NCBI GenBank assembly: GCA_036785375.1
Contig: JAWMAR010000085.1
Span: 7,688,001-7,752,000, forward strand
DNA: 64,000 nt
Source of the DNA: Leucoraja ocellata
Lineage: Eukaryota
Direction of reading: 5' to 3'
Below the pieces are notes generated by a model. That model made no database searches. It had not been told where the DNA came from and saw nothing but the letters and a program-made list of their open reading frames with translations. Positions within the stretch are counted from its first letter, which is position 1. Every line of letters begins with the position of its first letter. Positions 3,513 through 48,800 of the stretch are shown piece after piece. A program made the translations under genes and the position numbers.

Positions 3513-5049
3513 TTAAAATGTAAATATCACTCTCTGAATCAGAATTATTAAAGGAAAGTCCAAAAGCTCAAGAAAATTCCACGCCCTTTGTTTGAAGGTG
3601 AGGAGGGCAAGATTTAACAGGAAACTGAGGGGCAACTTTGATTAGTACAGGTGACAGGAATTATGGGGAGAAGACTGTCAAGTGTCATGCTCGGTATTGG
3701 AAAGCAGCCAACAGCTTAGTCACTGTGTAGTAAGGAACTGCAGATGCTGGTTTACACTGAAGATAGACACAAAATGCTGGAGTAACTCAGCGGGTCAGGC
3801 AGCGTCTCTGGAGAAAAGGAATAGGTGATTTTGGGTCGAGATCCTTCCTCAGACTGAGAGTCAGGGGAGAGGGGAACTAGAAATATGAAGAGGTACAACC
3901 GTTTTGGCTCAATAACCTTCCTCGGGCTGAGAGAACTTTAGGCCGAAGGACTTGTTTCTGTTATTTTTAGTGCGTCTTAATGTATGTTTTAATGTTTTTC
4001 GGTATGTCTGATGTGGGGTGTTGCGGGGCGGTGGGGGGGATATAGGGGGAAACCGTTTTCAGTCACTTACCTCGACGGAGTTGCGACTTTTCTTCTTGTC
4101 GCATCTTCGTCCCCCTCACGGCCTAACACCTGGTTTGGTGCGGCCTCTCCAGACCAGAGACTGGCCCAGAACTTCGGCAGCAGGTGCAGTGCGGACTTAC
4201 CATCGCAGAGCCTGGGATCCCTTGCCGGGGATCGCCAGAAGAAGTGCTCCGACCGCTGGCGATCTTTAACATCATGAAGCCGCAGTCTCCGGTAAGAAGC
4301 GGCCGATTCAGGAACTCCAAGCCGCGGAGTGTGTTCTAATCCATCCCGATGTCGGAGTTTCGATCATCCCGACAAGAGGGCTTGTACATCGGGCCGTCCG
4401 TAACGGCGACTGCGGAGGGTCAAGGCTCCGACCACAGGTGAACAAAGGAGGAAGATTGACTGAATTTATCGCCTTCCATCACAGTGAGGAGTGCTGATTC
4501 CACTGTATGTCTGTATGTTAACTGAAATATCACTGTACCTTAATTTGTGCATGTGACAATAAATGTCAACTTGAACTTGAACTCTGTCTCTAAACTAAAC
4601 TAACTGCTGTGAATTTGGTGTTTGAACCGATTTGGGTGGAAGTTAAATCATGTTCTTCAAAGTGAAAGTTGAGTCGCTGCAGAAATGTAATCCTCCTGAC
4701 TGAAACTTGATCCCAGGCTCAGTTTAATTCAAACCCATCTGTCCTTAAAGGCAGAAAGAGCCGAGATATTTCAGTCAGCATTATTCTAATCCCAGCTGTG
4801 ATGCATAATGCTGTAAGACATTGCTGATGAAGCAAATGAACCTTAACCATTAACCTGTTTCATTTGCAGATGCTGATTGAGTATTATTTGACTTACACGA
4901 TTTTCTGCTTCTGTTTCAAGCTTACAATTTTTACTTTTGTTTAATGAAGATAATGGAGAATAGATAGGGTGAATCAGTGGGCCAAAGGACCTGTTTCCAC
5001 ATTGCATCTCTAAACTAAACTAAGAACTAAACAACAAGGTGGTGACCCT

Positions 5050-37031: not shown

Positions 37032-39590
37032 GTAAGTGTCAGCACCAAAGACCTGAGAACTGAAAATATCTGTGATATGAAATGATATGAAATGAAAATA
37101 TCTAGCATGGAATGAACATTGACTTCTCCAGTTTTAGGTAACCTCTAACAAGGTGGTGGCACAGTGGTTACAATTTGGTAAAAATTGTACATTGCCCCTT
37201 GTGTGTAGGATAGGGCTAGTATACTTGGGTGATCAATGGTCGGCGTGGTCGGTTATTTTCGGGTTTGGGTTGGGACCTTTCTACAAACTCATGTTAAAGC
37301 CGGCACTGGATGAGAGAGGTGCTTTGTACAGGCAGCAATAGATTTGGGGAAAAGTAGAAACAAGGAACGGCAGATGGTAGTATACAAGAAAAGGCACAAA
37401 GTGCTGAAGTAACTCAGCGGGTCAGGCAGCATCTCTGGAGAACATGGATAGGTGAATTTTCTAGTCCCCACCCAAAACGTCACCTATCCATGTTCTCCAG
37501 TGATCCTGCCTGACCCGCTGAGTTACACCAGCACTTTGTTGTTTGATTGAAACTATCTTGTGCTTTAGTCTGGTACATGATTATCCAAAAGAAGTGCTGG
37601 AATATGTAGGCACATAGGGATTGCAGATGCTTGTTTACAAAAAAATAGACACAAAGTGCTGGAATGAGTGCTGGATCTGCCAGTATCTGTGGAGGATATG
37701 GAAAGGTGATGTTTAAGGTTGGGACCCTTCTTCCGACTGATGAAGTACAGGAAAAAAGCTGGAAGATGGGTGGGACAGGACAAAGCCTGGCAAGTGATAA
37801 TAGACACAAAAAGCTGGAGTAACTCAGCGGGACAGGCAGCGTCTCTGGAGAGAAGGAATAGGTGATGTTCCGGCATGTGACCCTTCTGCAGACGAGTGGA
37901 TGCAGGTGAGGTGGGGGTGATTGACAAATGGTTATCCAAAGGCTAGAGATGAAGAGACAAAGGGTAGTGAGGTAAGGAGAGAAGAATAGAAGAGGCATGA
38001 AATGTGATGCCTGAGAAAAGGATATAGATGAAAGGGGGTGATGGGTTGGGGAATGGAAAGGGGAGCAGGGTAGTGGGAGAAATGTGTGCGCTTCCAGTTG
38101 TGGCACAGGGAAGAGGGCAGGGGAGGTATGTTTCTTGGTTATTATTAACCTAAAACTGGAGAATCCTATTTGGTTGTGAGCTCACTAAATATGTCAATAT
38201 TTGCAATATGCCATTGATATTGTTCAATATGGCTAGATTTTCCAGGGCCATATGTTGACTTGGGGACCAACTATTTTAGTGTTTTACAAAGAGAGTGAGT
38301 TAATTGATAATTATGTAATTAAGCTGCCTTTAGAAAAGACCAACCATCCATGATAGAATTTTATGAAAAGATTGAAAATGATTTTGTTCAATCTTAAATG
38401 TAATCAAAGCAAATTATGGAGCTGGCTACAGAGATTGGGGAACTACACTACAAGGGATGGTGTTGAAATACACAATGACTAACATTTCGTGAATTAATGC
38501 AGTTTATCGCAAAAATACATCTCTTTGTGGCACAAAAACCCAACTGGAAAGATTAGCCGAGAATGACAAACAAGAGAAGTTGGCAATAATGTTAGACAAA
38601 AGGAAAAAGCTAATAACCTACCAGAAGGCTCAGCAACCCCATGTAATGAAAAGCATAAAGGAGGTTTTTTTTTTATTAAAGGAAAGTAAATTAGAATATG
38701 AATGAATATAGAAACAGATTTCAAATGCCTATTGGTTCAGAGGTATTTTATTGTCGCATGCAGTGAAATTCTTTTTTTGTACATAGTTCAGTAAAAATCT
38801 TGCCACAGGTCCACAACTGATTTTCCAGTACCCTTGTTTCCAGAGCCTAGCAGTATTATCTATCCCGCAAAGTCGACTATGAGAACAGACCGCATGGGAC
38901 AAATTCAACCTGCTGATCGGCCGCGGAAATTAACGATGGGAACGGATCCGCCTGTCCATTCCCTCCACAGGTTCTGCCTGGCCCGCAGAGTTGTTTTTCT
39001 TTAGGTTGGTTTACATAGAAACATAGAAAATAGGTGCAGGAGTAGGCCATTCGGCCCTTCGAGCTTGCACCGCCAATCATGACCATGGCTGATCATCCAA
39101 CTCGGTATCCTGTACCTGCCCTCTCTCCATACCCCCTGATCCCTTTAGCCACAAGGGCCACATTTAACACCCTCTTAAATATAGCCAATGAACTGGCCTC
39201 AACTACCTTCTGTGGCAGGGAGTTCCAGAGATTCACCACTCTCTGTGTGAAAAATGTTTTTCTCATCTCGGTCCTTAAGGATTTCCCCTTTATCCTAAAC
39301 TGTGACCCCTTGTCCTGTACTTCCCCAACATCGGGAACAATCTTCCTGCATCTAGCCTGTCCAACCCCTTAAGAATTTTGTAAGTTTCTATAAGATCCCC
39401 CCTCAATCTTCTAAATCTTCTAAATTTTTAAGATGCTTTTTAAGATTACTTTTAAGATACAGCGTAGAAACAGGCTGAGTTACTTCTGCACCTAGCGTCT
39501 TTTTATAATATCTTCCCACTGACTATTTAGATGTTGAAATTATTGCACTTTGGCACCAACACCTTTTTTTATTTGTTGATGGCTTTACAG

Positions 39591-39989
39591 AGAGTGGTTT
39601 CAGCGTAACAGCAATAACACGGACACCCTCAGTGACGTACGGTAATGCGTTTGAACTCCAGTGCTTCATCAGACCAAACTATCCTTCCTGGGTGTCTGTA
39701 TCGTGGAGGTGGAAATTCCAGTCATCCCAATCAGGCAACATCTACGACATGGTCACGTTTGCCCGCGACACGTCTATCATTTGGGGAAATAAGGTCACAA
39801 ATTTTAAAAGCAAGACGATGATAACAAAGACGCCCAATAACGTCCGGCTAAACGTCTCCAAGGCTAGTGATTTGGAGGCGGGGAGATACCAGTGCATTGC
39901 AGAACTTTGGCATCAGAATCAGATGGAACAGTGGGTGAGGAAAGCTGAAAAATCGTCAAACATCCTGGAGGTCAAGGTCAAACCGCCAG
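39591..39989 (+). CDS. IGSF3: IGSF3 internal exon (Ig domain 5)
   Basis: TTACAG acceptor, G|GTAAGT donor, 399 bp. ESGFSVTAITRTPSVTYGNAFELQC...NNVRLNVSKASDLEAGRYQCIAELW...SNILEVKVKPP. Confidence 0.93.
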
Positions 39990-40534: not shown

Positions 40535-40952
40535 ACCTATCCATGTTCTCCAAGGATTCTGCCTGACCCGCTGAGTTACTCCAGCACTTTGTGACTTTCC
40601 CTGTTCAATTCTAATTTTTTGAATGAAAGGTTCAGCTTGGGAACAGGGCCTTTGGTCCACCAAGTCCACGCCGACCTTCGATCACCTGTTCACACTAGTT
40701 CTATGTCATCTCACTAACGCATCCACTCCCTGCACACTAGCAGCTATTTACAGAGGCCAATTTTACTTCGGAGTCACGTGAGTGACTACGTGAAGAACCC
40801 CGCTAGGACGCATGCCTGTCATATCGCTACACGCATTGCAAACGTCAGGCGGGGTGGAAGGACGTTCCCCCGCAGCGGCTGTTTAAAAAGCCGGAACCCG
40901 CAGGTAAGATTATTCTACGGTTAATGTGTGTTTCTTATACCAACTACAGGTA

Positions 40953-41418
40953 TACAGCCTGGGTTTCAACAACTAAGTTACAGAGATAGGTTTAATAAGT
41001 TAGGTCTTTATTCTCTGGAGTGCAGAAGGTTAAGGGGGGACCTGATAGAGGTCTTTAAAATGATGAGAGGGATAGACAGAGTTGATGTGGACAAGCTTTT
41101 CCCTTTGAGAATAGGGAAGATTCAAACAAGAGGACATGACTTCAGAATTAAGGGACAGAAGTTTATGGGTAATATGAGGGGGAACTTCTTTACTCGGAGA
41201 GTGGTAGCGGTGTGGAATGAGCTTCCAGTGGAAGTGATGGAGGCAGGTTCATTGGTATCATTTAAAAATAAATTGGATAGGCATATGGATGAGAAGGGAA
41301 TGGAGGGTTATGGTATGAGTGCAGGCAGGTGGGACTAAGGGGAAAAAAAAGTTGTTCGGCACGGACTTGTAGGGCCGAGATGGCCTGTTTCCGTGCTGTA
41401 ATTGTTATATGGTTATAT
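40953..41418 (+). mobile_element. 5'-truncated CR1-type LINE inserted in the DIRS 5' leader
   Basis: Open C-terminus LSYRDRFNKLGLYSLECRRLRGDLIEVFK...TRGHDF...FFTRRVVAVWNELP...FKNKLD, CR1 3' tail GGCCTGTTTCCGTGCTGTA, and possible AGGTA duplication (40948-52 / 41419-23). Confidence 0.88.
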
Positions 41419-41429
41419 AGGTAGGAAAC

Positions 41430-42650
41430 ATGGACAAAGGAAAGAAAACAAGGGTTGTGATGAAGCTGGTGAAGGACCACGGAACAGCGGGCAGCCAGCA
41501 GCGGCCAGCGGCACTTGGATCACCAATAATGGGATCAGCTGTGCCCGATGTCGCCTCCACACCGGCCAAATCCACTCCGCAGCCGGGCGGCAAGGGTACA
41601 CAAAAAACCAACAAGAGTCGTGGACTCAGAGGAGTCCGACTCTGAGCAACCGCGGGCGGCCAGCGACCGTGAGCGCTGGAGCCGGATGGAGCGGTGCATG
41701 GAGCATTTGCTCCAACGTGACAGGCTCTAGGAGATGGAGTCGAGTCACTGTGGGCCCTATGGTAAACCCACAGCAGCACCTCTTGGAGGGATGCACAGTG
41801 TCTCTCCCTCATCAGAGGGGAGCACTGGGGGTCAGTTCTGGGCTGACCTTGAAGAGGGGTTCTCGGAAGAAAAATCAAGTGTGCAGGGGGTGCAGGAAAG
41901 AGAAAATCTGCTGGACATGGTGTCCAATTTCATACAGCCAGACCAGGCTGGCAATAACCTGGAGCAAAAGCTTGCTGCCAGTATAGACTATATGTCTTTA
42001 AACCAGCTACAAGAACAGGCTGTATTGGACACCACATCAAGACATCTGGCACCGGGAAACTGCATATCCCTGAATGTTCCAGCAGTCAACACCTGCATAT
42101 GGAAATATATTGGAACAGGAGTTAGGAGCATGGACGTTAAACTCCAGAAAGTATTAAAACTCCTAGCTGCTGGGATAACAGCATTCGCCCGCAGTGGATG
42201 AAAAAGATATGTCCCAAGACCAACAGGATGCACTGGCATTGTGTTGTAACACTCAATATGAGTTAAACAACATCAGAAAGAATGCCATTCGACCCACACT
42301 AAATCCAGAATTTGCGGGTCTGTGCAAACCTGGGACCCCAAAACCGCCAATACTACTGTTTGGAGGGGACTTATCGAAGCAAGTAAAAGAGCTCGATGAA
42401 GAATCAAAAAGGGACTTCATCCAAAATCCACTACAACTACAGACAGCACCCCTACGCACCCACCAGTAGAACAGGATGGTCTGGGTGACCGACTAGTGAA
42501 AGCTCGAAGGTTCGGTACACTAAACATGAGTCTTTTTTAGGCCATGGCCCAGGCCGACCTTCTTGGAAGATAAGAGAACCTCCAACATCAACCAAACCTC
42601 AAACCCAGAATCCACCGCCTCAACATCAACGAAAGACTTACAGGAAGAAG
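41430..42650 (+). pseudogene. DIRS gag-like ORF1, frameshifted
   Basis: ATG at 41430, continuing through ORF pieces 41734-42201 and 42194-42469 (...VPAVNTCIW...DVKLQKV...ELNNIRKNAIRPTLN...LLFGGDL), which resemble DIRS1 gag. Lies upstream of RT. End approximate. Confidence 0.7.
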
Positions 42651-42670
42651 TGAACCTGCCACTGGTAACT

Positions 42671-44160
42671 ATGGAGGTAGGTGGGTCTGGTTCCCTACAA
42701 AATACAGGGAGCACGGAGGTTGGGGGGAGATTACACTCCTTTCTGAATGCATGGAGCATGATAACTTATATTTTAAGCAGTATCCAGGGATATACTATAG
42801 AATTTATACACAAATACAAACCTCCAGTTCAACATATATCGAACCGAGTGTTCGTACTTTTGGGTAAAGAGAAATCAGAAGCACATGCTGAACTGGAGCG
42901 GCTTTACGCAAAAGGTGTAATTGAAAAATCCCAACACGAACCATTAGAATTCGTGTCCAATATATTTACCAAAAACAAAAAAGATGGTGGTTGTCGCATC
43001 ATCATAGATCTGACCAAATTGAATACTTTTGTACAATACATTCATTTTAAAATGGAAGCCTTTGGTTACTGCTAAACAATTGATTTCCCAAGATTACTTC
43101 ATGGCCAGCATCGATTTAAAAGATGCTTACTATTCAGTGCCTATACGAGGTGACCACAGATGTTTCTTAAAATTCAACTGGATGGGAAAGCTCTGACAAT
43201 ACAGAGCACTACCAAATGAGTTAACATCAGCCCCTAGGCTGTTCACAAAAATTTTGAAACCAGCCCTAGCATTTCTACGGAAACGAGAACACATGGTCAT
43301 GGCATATCTAGATGGCATACTCATTGTGGGCAAAAATTTGGAATTGGCCAAACAAACTGTAACAGCCACAAAACAGTTATTTGAAAAACTGGGGTTTATT
43401 ATCCATCCAGTTAAATCTAAATTAACGCCTTCCACTACAATGGACTATTTGGGGTTCACCATTCACTCAGTTCACATGTTGGTGACATTACCAAAAGGAA
43501 AGGCGATAGAATTAATAGAGGCTTGCAAAAACCTCATTGGCATCAATAAACCATCCATCAGGTTGGTAGCTAAAGTAATTGGCAAAATGGTGGCTGCCTT
43601 TCCAGCCACACATTTTGGATCTTTACATTACCAAAATTTACAAAGGGCAAAAATACAAGCTCTCAAAACTAATGCTGGTCATTTTGACAGACCGATGAAG
43701 CTGCCAATCAAAGCCATAATGGAACTAAATTGGTGGATAGATAACATTTGGCATTCCTACAATCCAATCATTATCAGCAACCCTTCAACGGTGCTACAAA
43801 CTGATGCCAGTGCACTTGGTTGGGGTGCCACCAATTCCATCTCCAGCTGTGGAGGTAGATGGACTGCACAGGAGGCATCATTATTACTCACACTGGGCAT
43901 AAACTACCTGGAAATGTTGGGTGCATTTTATGGCCTAAAATCATATTGTACTGGGTCACACCACCAGCATGTTAGATTACAGATTGATAATACCACCGTG
44001 GTAGCATATATCAACCACATGGGTGGAAACAAATCGACATCATGTGACAATCTGGCTAATACAATTTGGCAATGGTGTACTCAGAGAGATATTTGGATAT
44101 CAGCAACTTACCTACCAGGTAAACTAAATTTAGTGGCAGACACTAGGTCACGCAAATTTA
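42671..44160 (+). pseudogene. DIRS reverse transcriptase + RNase H (disrupted)
   Basis: RT: VGGRL...FVSNIFTKNKKDGGCRIIIDL...HFKME, frameshift near 43060, MASIDLKDAYYSVPI, in-frame TGA at 43194, catalytic YLDD altered to YLDG (43305-43316). RNase H: LQTDASALGWGA, INYLEMLG, IDNTTVVAYINHMGG, YLPGKLNLVADTRSR. Confidence 0.93.
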
Positions 44161-44169
44161 ATGAAAACA

Positions 44170-44589
44170 CCAAATGGATGTTGAACAAAAAAGTATTTGC
44201 TGATATTACAGCACGATATGGAACACCAGATATCGATCTATTCACATCCAGGCTTAATCACCAATTATCAAATTATGTTTCGTGGGAACCAGACCCTGGG
44301 GCAGCGGCGACAGATGCATTTTCGCTGCATTGGGGGAAAATTGTTTATATATGCATTCCTTCCTTTCTGCCTCATCAGTCGGGTATTAAGGAAAATACAG
44401 CAGGACTCTGCGTCTGGTATTTTGATAGTACCCGATTGGCCTACTCAACCATGGTTCCCAGTGATACTGAACATGGTTTTAGAACCATGTATCACCATCC
44501 CAAATAGACCAGACTTGTTAGTACATCCCGTAACAACGGATAGCCACCCATGCCATAAATATTTAAATTTATTAATTTGTAGAGTTTAA
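44170..44589 (+). pseudogene. DIRS DAM-like (N6-adenine) methyltransferase domain, frameshifted
   Basis: W...PDIDLFTSRLN...DAFSLHWG, frameshift at GGGGGAAAA (~44332-44340), then YAFLPF (YAFPPF-type motif IV) and LIVPDWPTQPWFP. This is the typical MT domain of DIRS1-like pol. Confidence 0.85.
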
Positions 44590-44633
44590 AAATACCACTA
44601 CTACAGCTGGGACTGACGGACCGAACAGTGAAC

Positions 44634-45560
44634 ATGATTTCAGCGGCCCAAAGACAGTCCACCCAAAAACAATATCTGGTCTATATCAGGAAATGGTAGA
44701 TGTATTGCCACAAAAACAACATCACCTACAGAGAGATGAACATCCCGTCTGTTCTGGAATACCTGGCAGGCCTCCATTATGATGAGGGGCTCAGTTACAG
44801 TGTCATCAACTGCGCCAGAAGTGCCTTATCAACGTATCTATGGCAAGGAACAGAGTGTCACTCTGTTGGGCCTCACCCACTGGTAACAAAACTCATGAGG
44901 GGAATTTTTAATACTAATCCCCCAAGAACCAGGTACTCCCAAATATGGGATATAAGTATTGTCCTGAAGATGCTCAGGAATTGGTCTCCAGCAACAGCTC
45001 TGTCCCTACACAGACTGACATTAAAAACAGTCATGCTAATGGCATTGGTCACGGCTCAGAGGGTACAGTCATTACATAAACTAAGACTGGACAACATGAC
45101 TTCTACACCCGAAAATATTACATTTCATATTTATGAATTAGTAAAACAGAACAGACAAGGATCAGCAGGCCTCAAAATAGAATTTAGATACTACCCAACA
45201 GATGATCGTCTCTGCATAGGCAGACATTTGTCGTGATATATGGAGAAAACAAAAAACATCAGAGGCTATGAGAAGGCACTTTTAATCAGCCATAAACAAC
45301 CACACAAAAGAGTAACGGTCCAGACCATCTCGAGATGGCTGAAACAGGTTCTAACACAGGCTGGGGTGGATACTAATGTTTTAAAATCTCATTCCACCAG
45401 GGCTGCAGCAACATCGGCAGCAATGCAGTTGGATGTACCAATGGACCAAATCCTCAAGGCAGCAGGATGGTCAGGGGGAAAAACATTCCAATTGTTTTAC
45501 CATAAACCAGTCATGAAACCTGGAACGTTTGCAGAAACAATTTTAAGTTCTGTAAATTAA
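44634..45560 (+). pseudogene. DIRS tyrosine recombinase (two in-frame stops)
   Basis: ARSALS, catalytic R in TAQRVQSL, HSTR in LKSHSTRAAATS, AAGW...TFQLFY. Stops at 44697-44699 and 45234-45236. Confidence 0.93.
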
Positions 45561-45722
45561 TTTAACCCATAAAAAAGGGGTTTATAATTTGTGTTAATAA
45601 ATTTCATGGATTTTAATATCGGATCATGTCTAAATTATGTTAACACAATTCCTCCTGCAGTAAATAAGGCAGATGTGAGGCATGGACTCGTTTCCAGGGC
45701 ATGAAATCACAGAGCTTTGAAA

Positions 45723-45830
45723 TCTTCACGTAGTCACTCACGTGACTCCGAAGTAAAATAGTAAGATTAAACGAGAACTTACCAGTTCGAAGTTTGATCA
45801 TTATTTTATGAGGAGTACGTTGAGGGAATA
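45723..45830. repeat. DIRS internal complementary region (ICR)
   Basis: 45723-45758 is the exact reverse complement of 40761-40796. 45759-45830 is the exact reverse complement of 45975-46046. Together they spell the circle junction. Confidence 0.95.
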
Positions 45831-48800
45831 TGTGCCCTCCGCTCCCACCCATGATCATATACTCAACTGGTATTTCTTCTCTAATCTTACTATGTTTAGT
45901 CATTACAGTTATCTGTGATTTCACACCGCTGCTTTGAAGAATGACACGCATGCGTCCTAGCGGGGTTCTTCACGTATTCCCTCAACGTACTCCTCATAAA
46001 ATAATGATCAAACTTCGAACTGGTAAGTTCTCGTTTAATCTTACTATTAACCTGCAAACCCACACGTCTTTGTGATGTGGGGAGAAACCGGAGCACCCGG
46101 AGGAAACCCACGCAGTCACAGGGAGAACGTGCAAACTCCACATACACAGCACCTGAGGTCATGATTGAACCCAGGTCTCTGGCACTGAGAGGAAATATTT
46201 TAATTGTCTAATGCATGAACCAATAAGTCTTATTACTGTTTAGGCAGCACATTTCCTGGTAATTACTTAAAACTCTGCATTATGCTCCAATTTCTTTCTA
46301 TATACCCGTACTTGTGTTTATTGAATACATCCTGGTTGGCAACATACATTTTAAGTAGGTACTGTTTAATTGTCATTTCAAACCCCTTTTTTCTCTGGAA
46401 GATATTGATTACTCGCATACTAATAGACATTGGGTAGCTTGTGCAGGGACACCATTAAAGGGTGGCACAGTGGCGCAGCTGATAGAGCTGCTGCCTCACA
46501 GAACCAGACCCCGGGTTTGATCCAGACTGTGGGTGCTGTCTGTGTGTGGAATTTGCATGTTCTCCCTGTGACCGCGTGGCTTTCCTCCAGGTGCTCCGAT
46601 TTCCTCCCACATCCCAAAGACGTACGGATCTGTAGGTTAATTGGTCTCTGTAAATTGCCCCCTACTATATAGAGAGTGGATTTGAAAGTGGGATAACTTG
46701 GATCTGGTGTAAACGGGTGATCGATGGTCGGCGTGGGCATGGTGGGCTGACAGGCTTGTTTCCATTCTGCACCCCTAAACTCTAAACATTACGTAAACTC
46801 TTGCTAAAAATAAACACACAATGCTGGAGTAACTCAGTGGGTCAGTCAGCATCTCTGGAGAAAATGGATTGGTGACGTTTCACCTTCCAACATGAGGCAA
46901 CATGTTAGTCCCAAAACATGGCTCCATCACACTGCTGGCACTGTCCGTCTCACTGTATTGTGCTGCATCAGCACTTTCCCTGTTGTGCCCCTCACCTTGA
47001 TGAGGCTTCTTAATCAACTCCAGGGCACATAATGAACTTAGTCGCTATCAGTCGCCGTCTCTCTCCCTTTTCTAAGTCCATTGTTTAAACTTTATCTCTA
47101 TCTTCCTCTGTCTTTCCATCTCTGTCGTCTCTCTTCATCTTAAACATCCCTTGATGTGAGAGTTAGCTTTATTCAGATACCTTGTGAGAAGAATTGAATG
47201 GTGCTTGTAGCCAGTAATGTTCCTGCTGTAGACTTCCAGCAGTAATTACTGTCCCTGTGTGTCAGTAGTAATGAATGTTCAGCTTCGAGCCATCTGTCAG
47301 AACAAGCGGGAATACAAGATTTCACCCTTGCCTCCTTCTCTCGAATTATTCATTGGAATATCCGAGAGCTGCCTCAGATAATCTCAAATCCTCTTTAACA
47401 TGGGGTATGCTTTTGTTTAAACATTAATTTAATGCTGAAAAGTGATTATTTTCAGTTGTGGTGAGCATTTTCGTCAGAAGCCTTTCACAACATCAGATAT
47501 AACATAGAAATATGAATAAAGAAGAAGGTACTAAAACATTTTCTTATGGGAGCACTTCGTATCTAATATAAATACATCAAAATCTGATGAATGTGCATTA
47601 TAAAATGGGCGCCAAATTGTAATTGGCATCCAGCATACATGTGCTTTGCATAAGATTCCAGCATCTGCAGCTCCTTGTGTCTGATACTATTTCAATATTA
47701 ATTTTGTTAAATGAAAAATTTAAATACTATTTTTAAAGGATGGATTTTAAGCCATGTTGATGACTGCTTTTAAAAGACACAAACATAATGAGACACCTGT
47801 AGCTAAAAAATAATTAGTAGTGTGGTTATGTGCTAGCAAGTTCAGTACGTTCATTCAGGTGAGAATTATGATCGGCAGAAATGGAAAATTGAACTCAAAA
47901 CTGAATTGTTCCTGAACCATAGAGCAAAACAGGAAACCCCACGAATGCCTAGACATAAGGATAACGATAAAAGGACCAATGAAAATTCATCTGACAGATC
48001 ATATACAGCACGGAAACAGGCCCTTCGGCCCAACTTGTCTATGCCGACCAAGATGTCCCATCTAAGTTAGTTCCATTTGCCTGCATATCCTTCTAAACCT
48101 TTCCTACCCATATACCTGACCAAATGTCTTTTAAGTGCCCTTAACTATCTTTGCCCTTAACCTTTCCTACCCGTATACCTGCCTCAACTATCTCCTTTGG
48201 CAGCTTTTTCCATGTACCCACCACCTGTGTGAAAAAAGTTCCTCCTCTCACCTTAAACCTGTGTCCTGTGGTTCTTGATTAGCCTACTCTGGGTAACAGA
48301 CTTTGCATTCAGCCTATCTATTCCCCTCATGATTTTATACACCTCCACAAGATCTTCTCTCAGCCTCCTGCGCTCCAAGAAATAAAATCCTGCCCGACCC
48401 CTCCCTATAGCTCACGCCCTCGACTCCTGGCAATATCCTTGTTAATTTTCACTACGCTCTTTCCAATTTAATGGCATGCTTCCGATGGCCGGCTGATCCG
48501 AAATGAACACAATTCTCCAATTGTGGAGTGCTCCTTGATCGTTCCAACTAATGCTTTATGCTTCCCTTTCCAACAGACGAAATCCACCCTTGATATATTC
48601 ATTCAACATCTTTGATTTCTCTCTTGCCATTTCTTCTAATATCTAGTCCCTGATTTACTAGGAGTTTCTTATATTTTCTGTTTGAAATTGATGAGACTTA
48701 AAAAAAAAATGAATCTGAATTAATTAAAATTATATTTTCACATCTAACAAATTATTTAGAAATGTATTAATATTACATGTTTAATTTACGTGCACTTCAT

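Follow-up and report, generated by a model that had tools for sequence, protein, structure and literature searches.

The element at positions 40760-46048 of the window, by which we mean the whole 64-kb stretch of DNA that was analysed (C85:7688001-7752000, part of a 3.44-Gb assembly), is a genuine DIRS1-like tyrosine-recombinase retrotransposon copy. Our data make it very probable that this dead copy, inserted at one ATT within a short repeat, went on to collect almost all of its coding lesions through neutral decay at its present site - rather than having been mobilised in trans with its ORFs already ruined, as a first-pass annotation of the window had proposed. It is, in other words, an unremarkable representative of a familiar type and just one among numerous dead copies, by itself of little significance. 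The sequences of sister lineages C and D, in turn, are evidence that all steps of the DIRS1 cycle can be provided in trans.

Anatomy of the element and its insertion site

The features of the element and of the repeat it interrupts are as follows (positions are those of the window).

40760-46048, + strand: DIRS1-like element; ATT at both ends, ITRs, ICR, target duplication absent
40760-40796, + strand: left terminus with ATT start; 37/37 complementary to the left ICR (45723-45759)
40797-40822, + strand: left ITR, conserved part; pairs with 45941-45966, single private mismatch at 40816
40953-41423, + strand: LINE 3' fragment insert of 471 bp; 8-bp near-duplication at its ends
41430-42653, + strand: ORF1, gag by position, broken; no Pfam match; lesions +1 at 41614, stop at 41728, -2 at 42192, -17 at 42408, stop at 42486
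42530-44589, + strand: ORF2 (RT with putative RNaseH and MT), broken; RVT_1 E=3.2e-10; lesions -9 at 42764, +1 at 43064, stop at 43194, YLDG at 43305-43316, +1 at 44337
44590-45560, + strand: ORF3, tyrosine recombinase; Phage_integrase E=1.1e-06; HSTR motif at 45390; stops at 44697 and 45234
45723-45834, + strand: ICR of 112 bp (37 + 78 bp, overlap being the 3-bp circle junction); private CpG transition at 45831
45941-46048, + strand: right ITR and terminus with ATT end; 45971-46048 complementary to the right ICR
40629-40759, no strand assigned: first half of a short (SINE-like) repeat interrupted by the element
46049-46146, no strand assigned: second half of the interrupted short repeat; no target-site duplication

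The ITR pair (40770-40822 versus 45941-45993) matches at 87% overall and at 25/26 positions in its conserved part, while the two ICRs are complementary to the termini over 37/37 and 77/78 positions and overlap at 45757-45759. That the element lacks a target duplication follows from the rebuilt empty site, in which the flanks, joined by one ATT, align across the junction with no gap to the uninterrupted repeat copy near 46540-46770. Of 73 distinct left ends, 67 have A as their first base and 6 have G.

Within the window, RVT_1 (43197-44504) and Phage_integrase (45237-45557) both score above their Pfam cut-offs, and these RT and tyrosine recombinase (YR) profiles together with the ATT ends, ITRs and ICR bear out the first-pass annotation, which had called a DIRS1-like element with ICR-templated ends and a circle junction. 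A Pfam search of the window segment for the methyltransferase domain gave no match, and the unbroken ORF2 of a sister copy (L047) gave Dam at E=0.0054, under the curated cut-off. The gag ORF of sister copies, ~420 codons long, is without a Pfam match, too, and a search of the YR fragment against PDB sequences gave nothing useful. For RNase H in ORF2, the only sign is a TDAS motif, a candidate mark of that domain; the 471-bp insert, for which Pfam gave no match, is presumably CR1-like.

PMC3266345 describes DIRS1-like elements as having ITRs that combine a conserved with a divergent part, a pair of ICRs whose overlap is a 3-bp junction, ATT ends without target duplication, and coding regions for RT and for a YR that bears HSTR. 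The window element matches these features, its ICR (37+78 bp) falling within the 85-130 bp reported there; unlike the elements described, however, it is coding-dead and carries a LINE insert. PMC7192593 and PMC3266345 lay out how the ends are restored on an ICR template, how a circle junction forms and how the recombinase integrates the element where the trinucleotide matches, and Dictyostelium DIRS-1, for which the former reports an essential ICR and a failed circle-junction PCR, has the same end-restoration architecture as our element. The source of the window copy probably carried one gag frameshift already. By the published mechanism, an incomplete transcript would be reverse-transcribed, both ends would then be restored on the ICR template, and the DNA would close at the ATT junction for the recombinase to integrate the circle at a genomic ATT. 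From then on, ICR, ends and interior would mutate at equal rate.

Complementarity between ICR and ends

A perfect ICR match with CpGs intact had been central to the idea of recent mobilisation, and it stands in part. Exact complementarity extends over 37 bp on the left (40760-40796 versus 45723-45759) and 74 bp on the right (45975-46048 versus 45757-45830), i.e. 108 bp in total with the ATT shared and three CpGs per arm. In sister copies, right-end/ICR pairing reaches 78 bp, 4 bp beyond the exact stretch of the window copy, in which these 78 nt pair at 99%. The difference is the pair 45831/45974, which is intact in 23/25 other tabulated copies (the same-locus homolog among them) and which in the window copy shows a private CpG transition at 45831, inside the 78-bp pairing. 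What looked like zero mismatches is a comparison halted at the first mismatch, before the ICR runs out. The corrected score is 1/112 for ICR versus ends and, with a second private mismatch at 40816 of the conserved ITR included, 2/138.

A second contig with the same insertion

Contig C309 carries a copy (L003) that has both flanks of the window element, and the entire 64-kb window is repeated there at ~98%. The two elements differ at 75/4755 sites (1.6%), with 3/112 ICR-end mismatches in L003 versus 1/112 in the window copy, and they descend from one integration, alleles or duplication alike. We consider C85 and C309 likely alleles rather than a fixed duplication, since in other samples the single-copy flank variants of the two contigs replace one another, with one contig per run. 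Over the unique flank, each public run gives one contig; one sample has the states of the window, a second shows C309 states in the left flank (three) and in the right flank (two), and a third is mixed - states read from contigs, which can collapse variants. Six further subfamily copy pairs likewise have common flanks. Contigs from other organisms are interrupted at the repeats that flank the orthologous site.

Coding lesions and their timing

The window copy has 13 lesions: five frameshifting indels, an in-frame 9-bp deletion, five premature stops, YLDG and the 471-bp insert. This agrees with the earlier tally of several frameshifts, at least three in-frame stops and YLDD changed to YLDG. Five of the 13 postdate the insertion, since L003 lacks them: the stops at 42486, 43194, 44697 and 45234 as well as the +1 at 44337. 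Seven (the insert, the stop at 41728, -2, -17, -9, +1 at 43064 and YLDG) are common by descent to both homologs alone, the insert with 11/463 differences between them, and these, too, likely arose after insertion.

The insert junction occurs on C85 and C309 only among the best 40 scored of 2371 first-look candidates, which speaks against an insert that recurs at independent loci. The same two contigs alone carry the junction of the 17-bp deletion among the best 40 scored of 137 first-look candidates. As for the small indels, all four (-2, -17, -9 and +1 at 43064) are missing from every other aligned copy that covers them. Three lesions do turn up elsewhere, namely the stop at 43194 in L024/L041 and L025 (at a hypervariable site where L042 has a different stop), the stop at 44697 in L013, albeit absent from its same-locus partner L044, and YLDG in L045, which has two derived sites in common with the window copy. 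We read these recurrences as probable homoplasy through recurrent mutation, because either a same-locus partner lacks the lesion (43194, 44697) or no linked changes accompany it (L045). Sharing of lesions by likely descent with an independent locus, as expected of a copy mobilised after its decay, is seen for the gag +1 (see below) but not for the other 12/13.

Substitutions found only in the two homologs look neutral, with 6 synonymous to 15 nonsynonymous changes versus 115 to 248 for changes that postdate the split (P=1.0). Between subfamilies, by contrast, synonymous differences abound (125 to 77). The branch common to the window copy and L003 carries ~19 substitutions along with the seven lesions, and its small indels are in mild excess (4 versus 1.5 expected, P=0.07), which leaves some room for decay prior to insertion. 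An origin of the internal deletions from spliced RNA was considered but looks unlikely, as the listed junctions show short overlaps or filler and, by eye, no clean GT-AG.

The shared gag frameshift

The +1 at 41614 is present in 4/33 copies read (the window copy, L003, L013 and L044), which represent two loci with different flanks. These have 2-3 derived substitutions in common and form a clade with a bootstrap of 70. Our evidence is evenly poised as to whether the source of the window copy was already gag-less, had RT and recombinase intact and was mobilised in trans ahead of later decay. While the two flanks and the additional derived substitutions argue for descent from such a source, and RT of Dictyostelium DIRS-1 is reported to act in trans (PMC7192593), 14/17 sites that seem to unite the loci are ancestral by outgroups and clade support stays at 70%. 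The +1 sits, moreover, in a short A-rich run, where it could recur, and a downstream in-frame ATG could yield a shorter gag. A long source branch common to the window locus and L013/L044 was dropped with the same 14/17 majority-polarity sites; Fisher tests on the 17 sites describe differences between source lineages only. A gag-less source refines our preferred explanation, i.e. decay of nearly all coding functions after insertion, and is compatible with it.

ICR-end mismatches and the time of mobilisation

The first-pass annotation suggested that the window copy was recently mobilised in trans after most of its ORF decay, with a helper still active. We judge this highly improbable and, for the stops, already largely refuted. 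In its favour are the low ICR-end mismatch (1/112), a slight surplus of indels on the branch before the split and the presence of non-autonomous lineages in the family; against it, L003 has the same insertion but three mismatches and lacks five of the 13 lesions, and neither insert nor 17-bp deletion was found at another locus (best 40 scored for each). Nor does the low mismatch count require late mobilisation. With ~57 post-insertion substitutions at 4802 sites (1.19%, outgroup polarity), 2.6 mismatches are expected in 108 bp (P of none 0.08) and 2.7 in 112 bp (P of at most one 0.26). The count of the window copy is the low tail of a Poisson distribution with a mean of ~2.7, and 0-1 mismatches are unremarkable at such divergence - an outcome that by the reasoning of the first-pass annotation itself speaks against its proposal. 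At the rate of the window copy, the probability of at least one zero-mismatch copy among 15 is 0.70, copies treated as independent.

The helper predicted elsewhere in the genome did not emerge either: three unbroken ORFs were found in 0/80 sampled loci (60 plus 20, the latter drawn from the top 109 matches to RT, in most cases because of long open frames or a close RT match), where ~100 of thousands of first-look candidates were examined through searches that score the best 40. Among the 20 RT-selected loci, those with both ends cleanly scorable have 2 to 8 ICR-end mismatches, and independent loci of the window subfamily differ from the window copy by ~3%. In the sampled loci, the DIRS1-like family looks extinct.

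As for the clock itself, 15 subfamily copies have 64 ICR-end mismatches versus 53 expected from interior divergence. The initial 39 loci had been picked by likeness to the ICR and right end of the window copy, which biases them to few mismatches. L046 (a head-to-head pairing of two DIRS families) and L051 (an alignment of 624 bp) were excluded from subfamily statistics, and L041, L047, L048 and L049, in which an end is missing or outside the locus, from ICR-end counts. ICR-to-end mismatch is hence an unbiased insertion clock across copies, as the first-pass annotation had assumed, and its caution that 108 bp make a short clock and a suggestive one only was well placed: ~110 bp are too short to date a single copy. 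That post-insertion gene conversion or hairpin repair between the inverted repeats keeps ICR and ends alike and slows this clock is highly improbable and was rejected on same-locus pair data and the mismatch excess: identical variants in ICR and right end of L012, L017 and L036 could hint at it yet fit inheritance from the source, mismatches observed (64) exceed those expected (53), and in four same-locus pairs termini plus ICR are no slower than the interior (16/883 or 1.8% versus 231/17521 or 1.3%, P=0.18), with no concerted ICR-plus-end change private to one pair member.

Sister lineages C and D

The claim of a non-autonomous lineage, which fails for the window copy with its one lesion found elsewhere by likely descent, holds for sister groups C and D, to neither of which the window copy belongs. 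All eight loci of group C (8/8, unrelated flanks) have in common a 76-bp and a 197-bp gag deletion together with two single-base RT deletions. Group D comprises 18 loci with unshared flanks and 51 coding-region indels, each in at least 14/18 loci; 46 of these are frameshifting and they span gag, pol and YR, including seven single-base deletions inside the recombinase region. Its copies diverge by 4.5% from each other and by 16-18% from coding-type copies. The 197-bp deletion junction of group C was matched at ≥97% and a group D junction at ≥98% in 40/40 best scored places each, counts that are inflated by haplotype pairs.

In both groups, inactivating lesions are common to independent loci while the termini are intact. 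Since such crippling lesions occur at many loci with unrelated flanks, groups C and D were likely mobilised in trans by borrowed enzymes. Taking our observations together, we find it rather probable that all DIRS1 proteins, recombinase included, act in trans, that the dead lineage D amplified as parasites and that the source of the window copy was gag-less. For Dictyostelium DIRS-1, trans action of proteins other than RT is left open by experiment (PMC7192593); it is on these proteins that the evidence from C and D bears, and the lesions of lineage D in all ORFs point, from sequence, to trans action beyond RT.

Non-autonomous DIRS elements as such are already known, TOC1 of Chlamydomonas being described as active in 10.1101/2022.06.16.496473. 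Lineages C and D, as we interpret them, resemble TOC1 in being coding-dead elements of the DIRS order mobilised by helpers; unlike active TOC1 as portrayed there, they are near-full-length decayed DIRS1-type elements with ~4-5% divergence among copies. For non-autonomous DIRS1 lineages in cartilaginous fish, we found no paper in a search that left most subscription journals and Repbase outside its reach.

The clock can be read in lineage D as well. Four of the 20 fetched D loci are without a right end (L094, L096, L106 and L110), and four of the remaining 18 copies, with a mis-called or rearranged end (L092, L095, L101 and L102), were set aside; the other 14/18 copies have a mean of 4.6/108 ICR-end mismatches (4.3%), versus the 4.5% by which D copies diverge from one another.

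Non-autonomous sister lineages and their copy numbers

Group D, a DIRS lineage of near-full length (L029, L033 and L092-L111; for example at G000:C172:816900-823900), carries 46 frameshifts common to independent loci, and its copies at independent loci have both their termini and their internal complementary region (ICR) intact. Group C (L006, L008, L009, L019, L020, L028, L036 and L038), whose copies have gag deletions and reverse transcriptase (RT) frameshifts in common, is a second non-autonomous lineage beside D. Each group occupies at least 40 places in the assembly, in which copy counts are inflated because both versions of many regions are present. Such paired versions, exemplified by the window (1-64000) and G000:C309:43000-109399, are 97-99% identical and lie on different contigs or, sometimes, both on one contig (L001/L004, L022/L023, L010/L059, L030/L031 and L073/L075). 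Apparent heterozygosity is high (~1.5%).

Element ends and rearranged copies

The elements show a target preference: in the flanks of 77 right ends, the base following the terminal ATT is T (35), A (27) or C (15) and never G (0/77). The 73 left ends begin with ATT or GTT.

At L046 (G000:C11:1296500-1304500) a copy of the subfamily is joined, in opposite orientation, to a second DIRS family that is 70% identical, and at L101 (G000:C266:1936300-1942300) the segment containing the ICR is inverted. The same-locus pair L047 and L048, on contigs C143 and C2, is interrupted at the ICR by a different element that encodes RT.

The window copy and its surroundings

39590-39989, immunoglobulin-domain exon (weak Pfam Ig_3 match)
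40904, donor-like site close to the element's 5' end
43190-43196, hypervariable spot in RT
44582, acceptor-like site immediately upstream of the tyrosine recombinase frame

The majority of copies vary at the RT spot, where stops are recurrent; the donor- and acceptor-like sites were picked out by eye. The immunoglobulin-domain exon ends 770 bp upstream of the DIRS1-like element, which probably sits inside an intron. In the public sequencing run X19, a single 5.4-kb contig matches the window solely at this exon, the pattern expected of a transcript.
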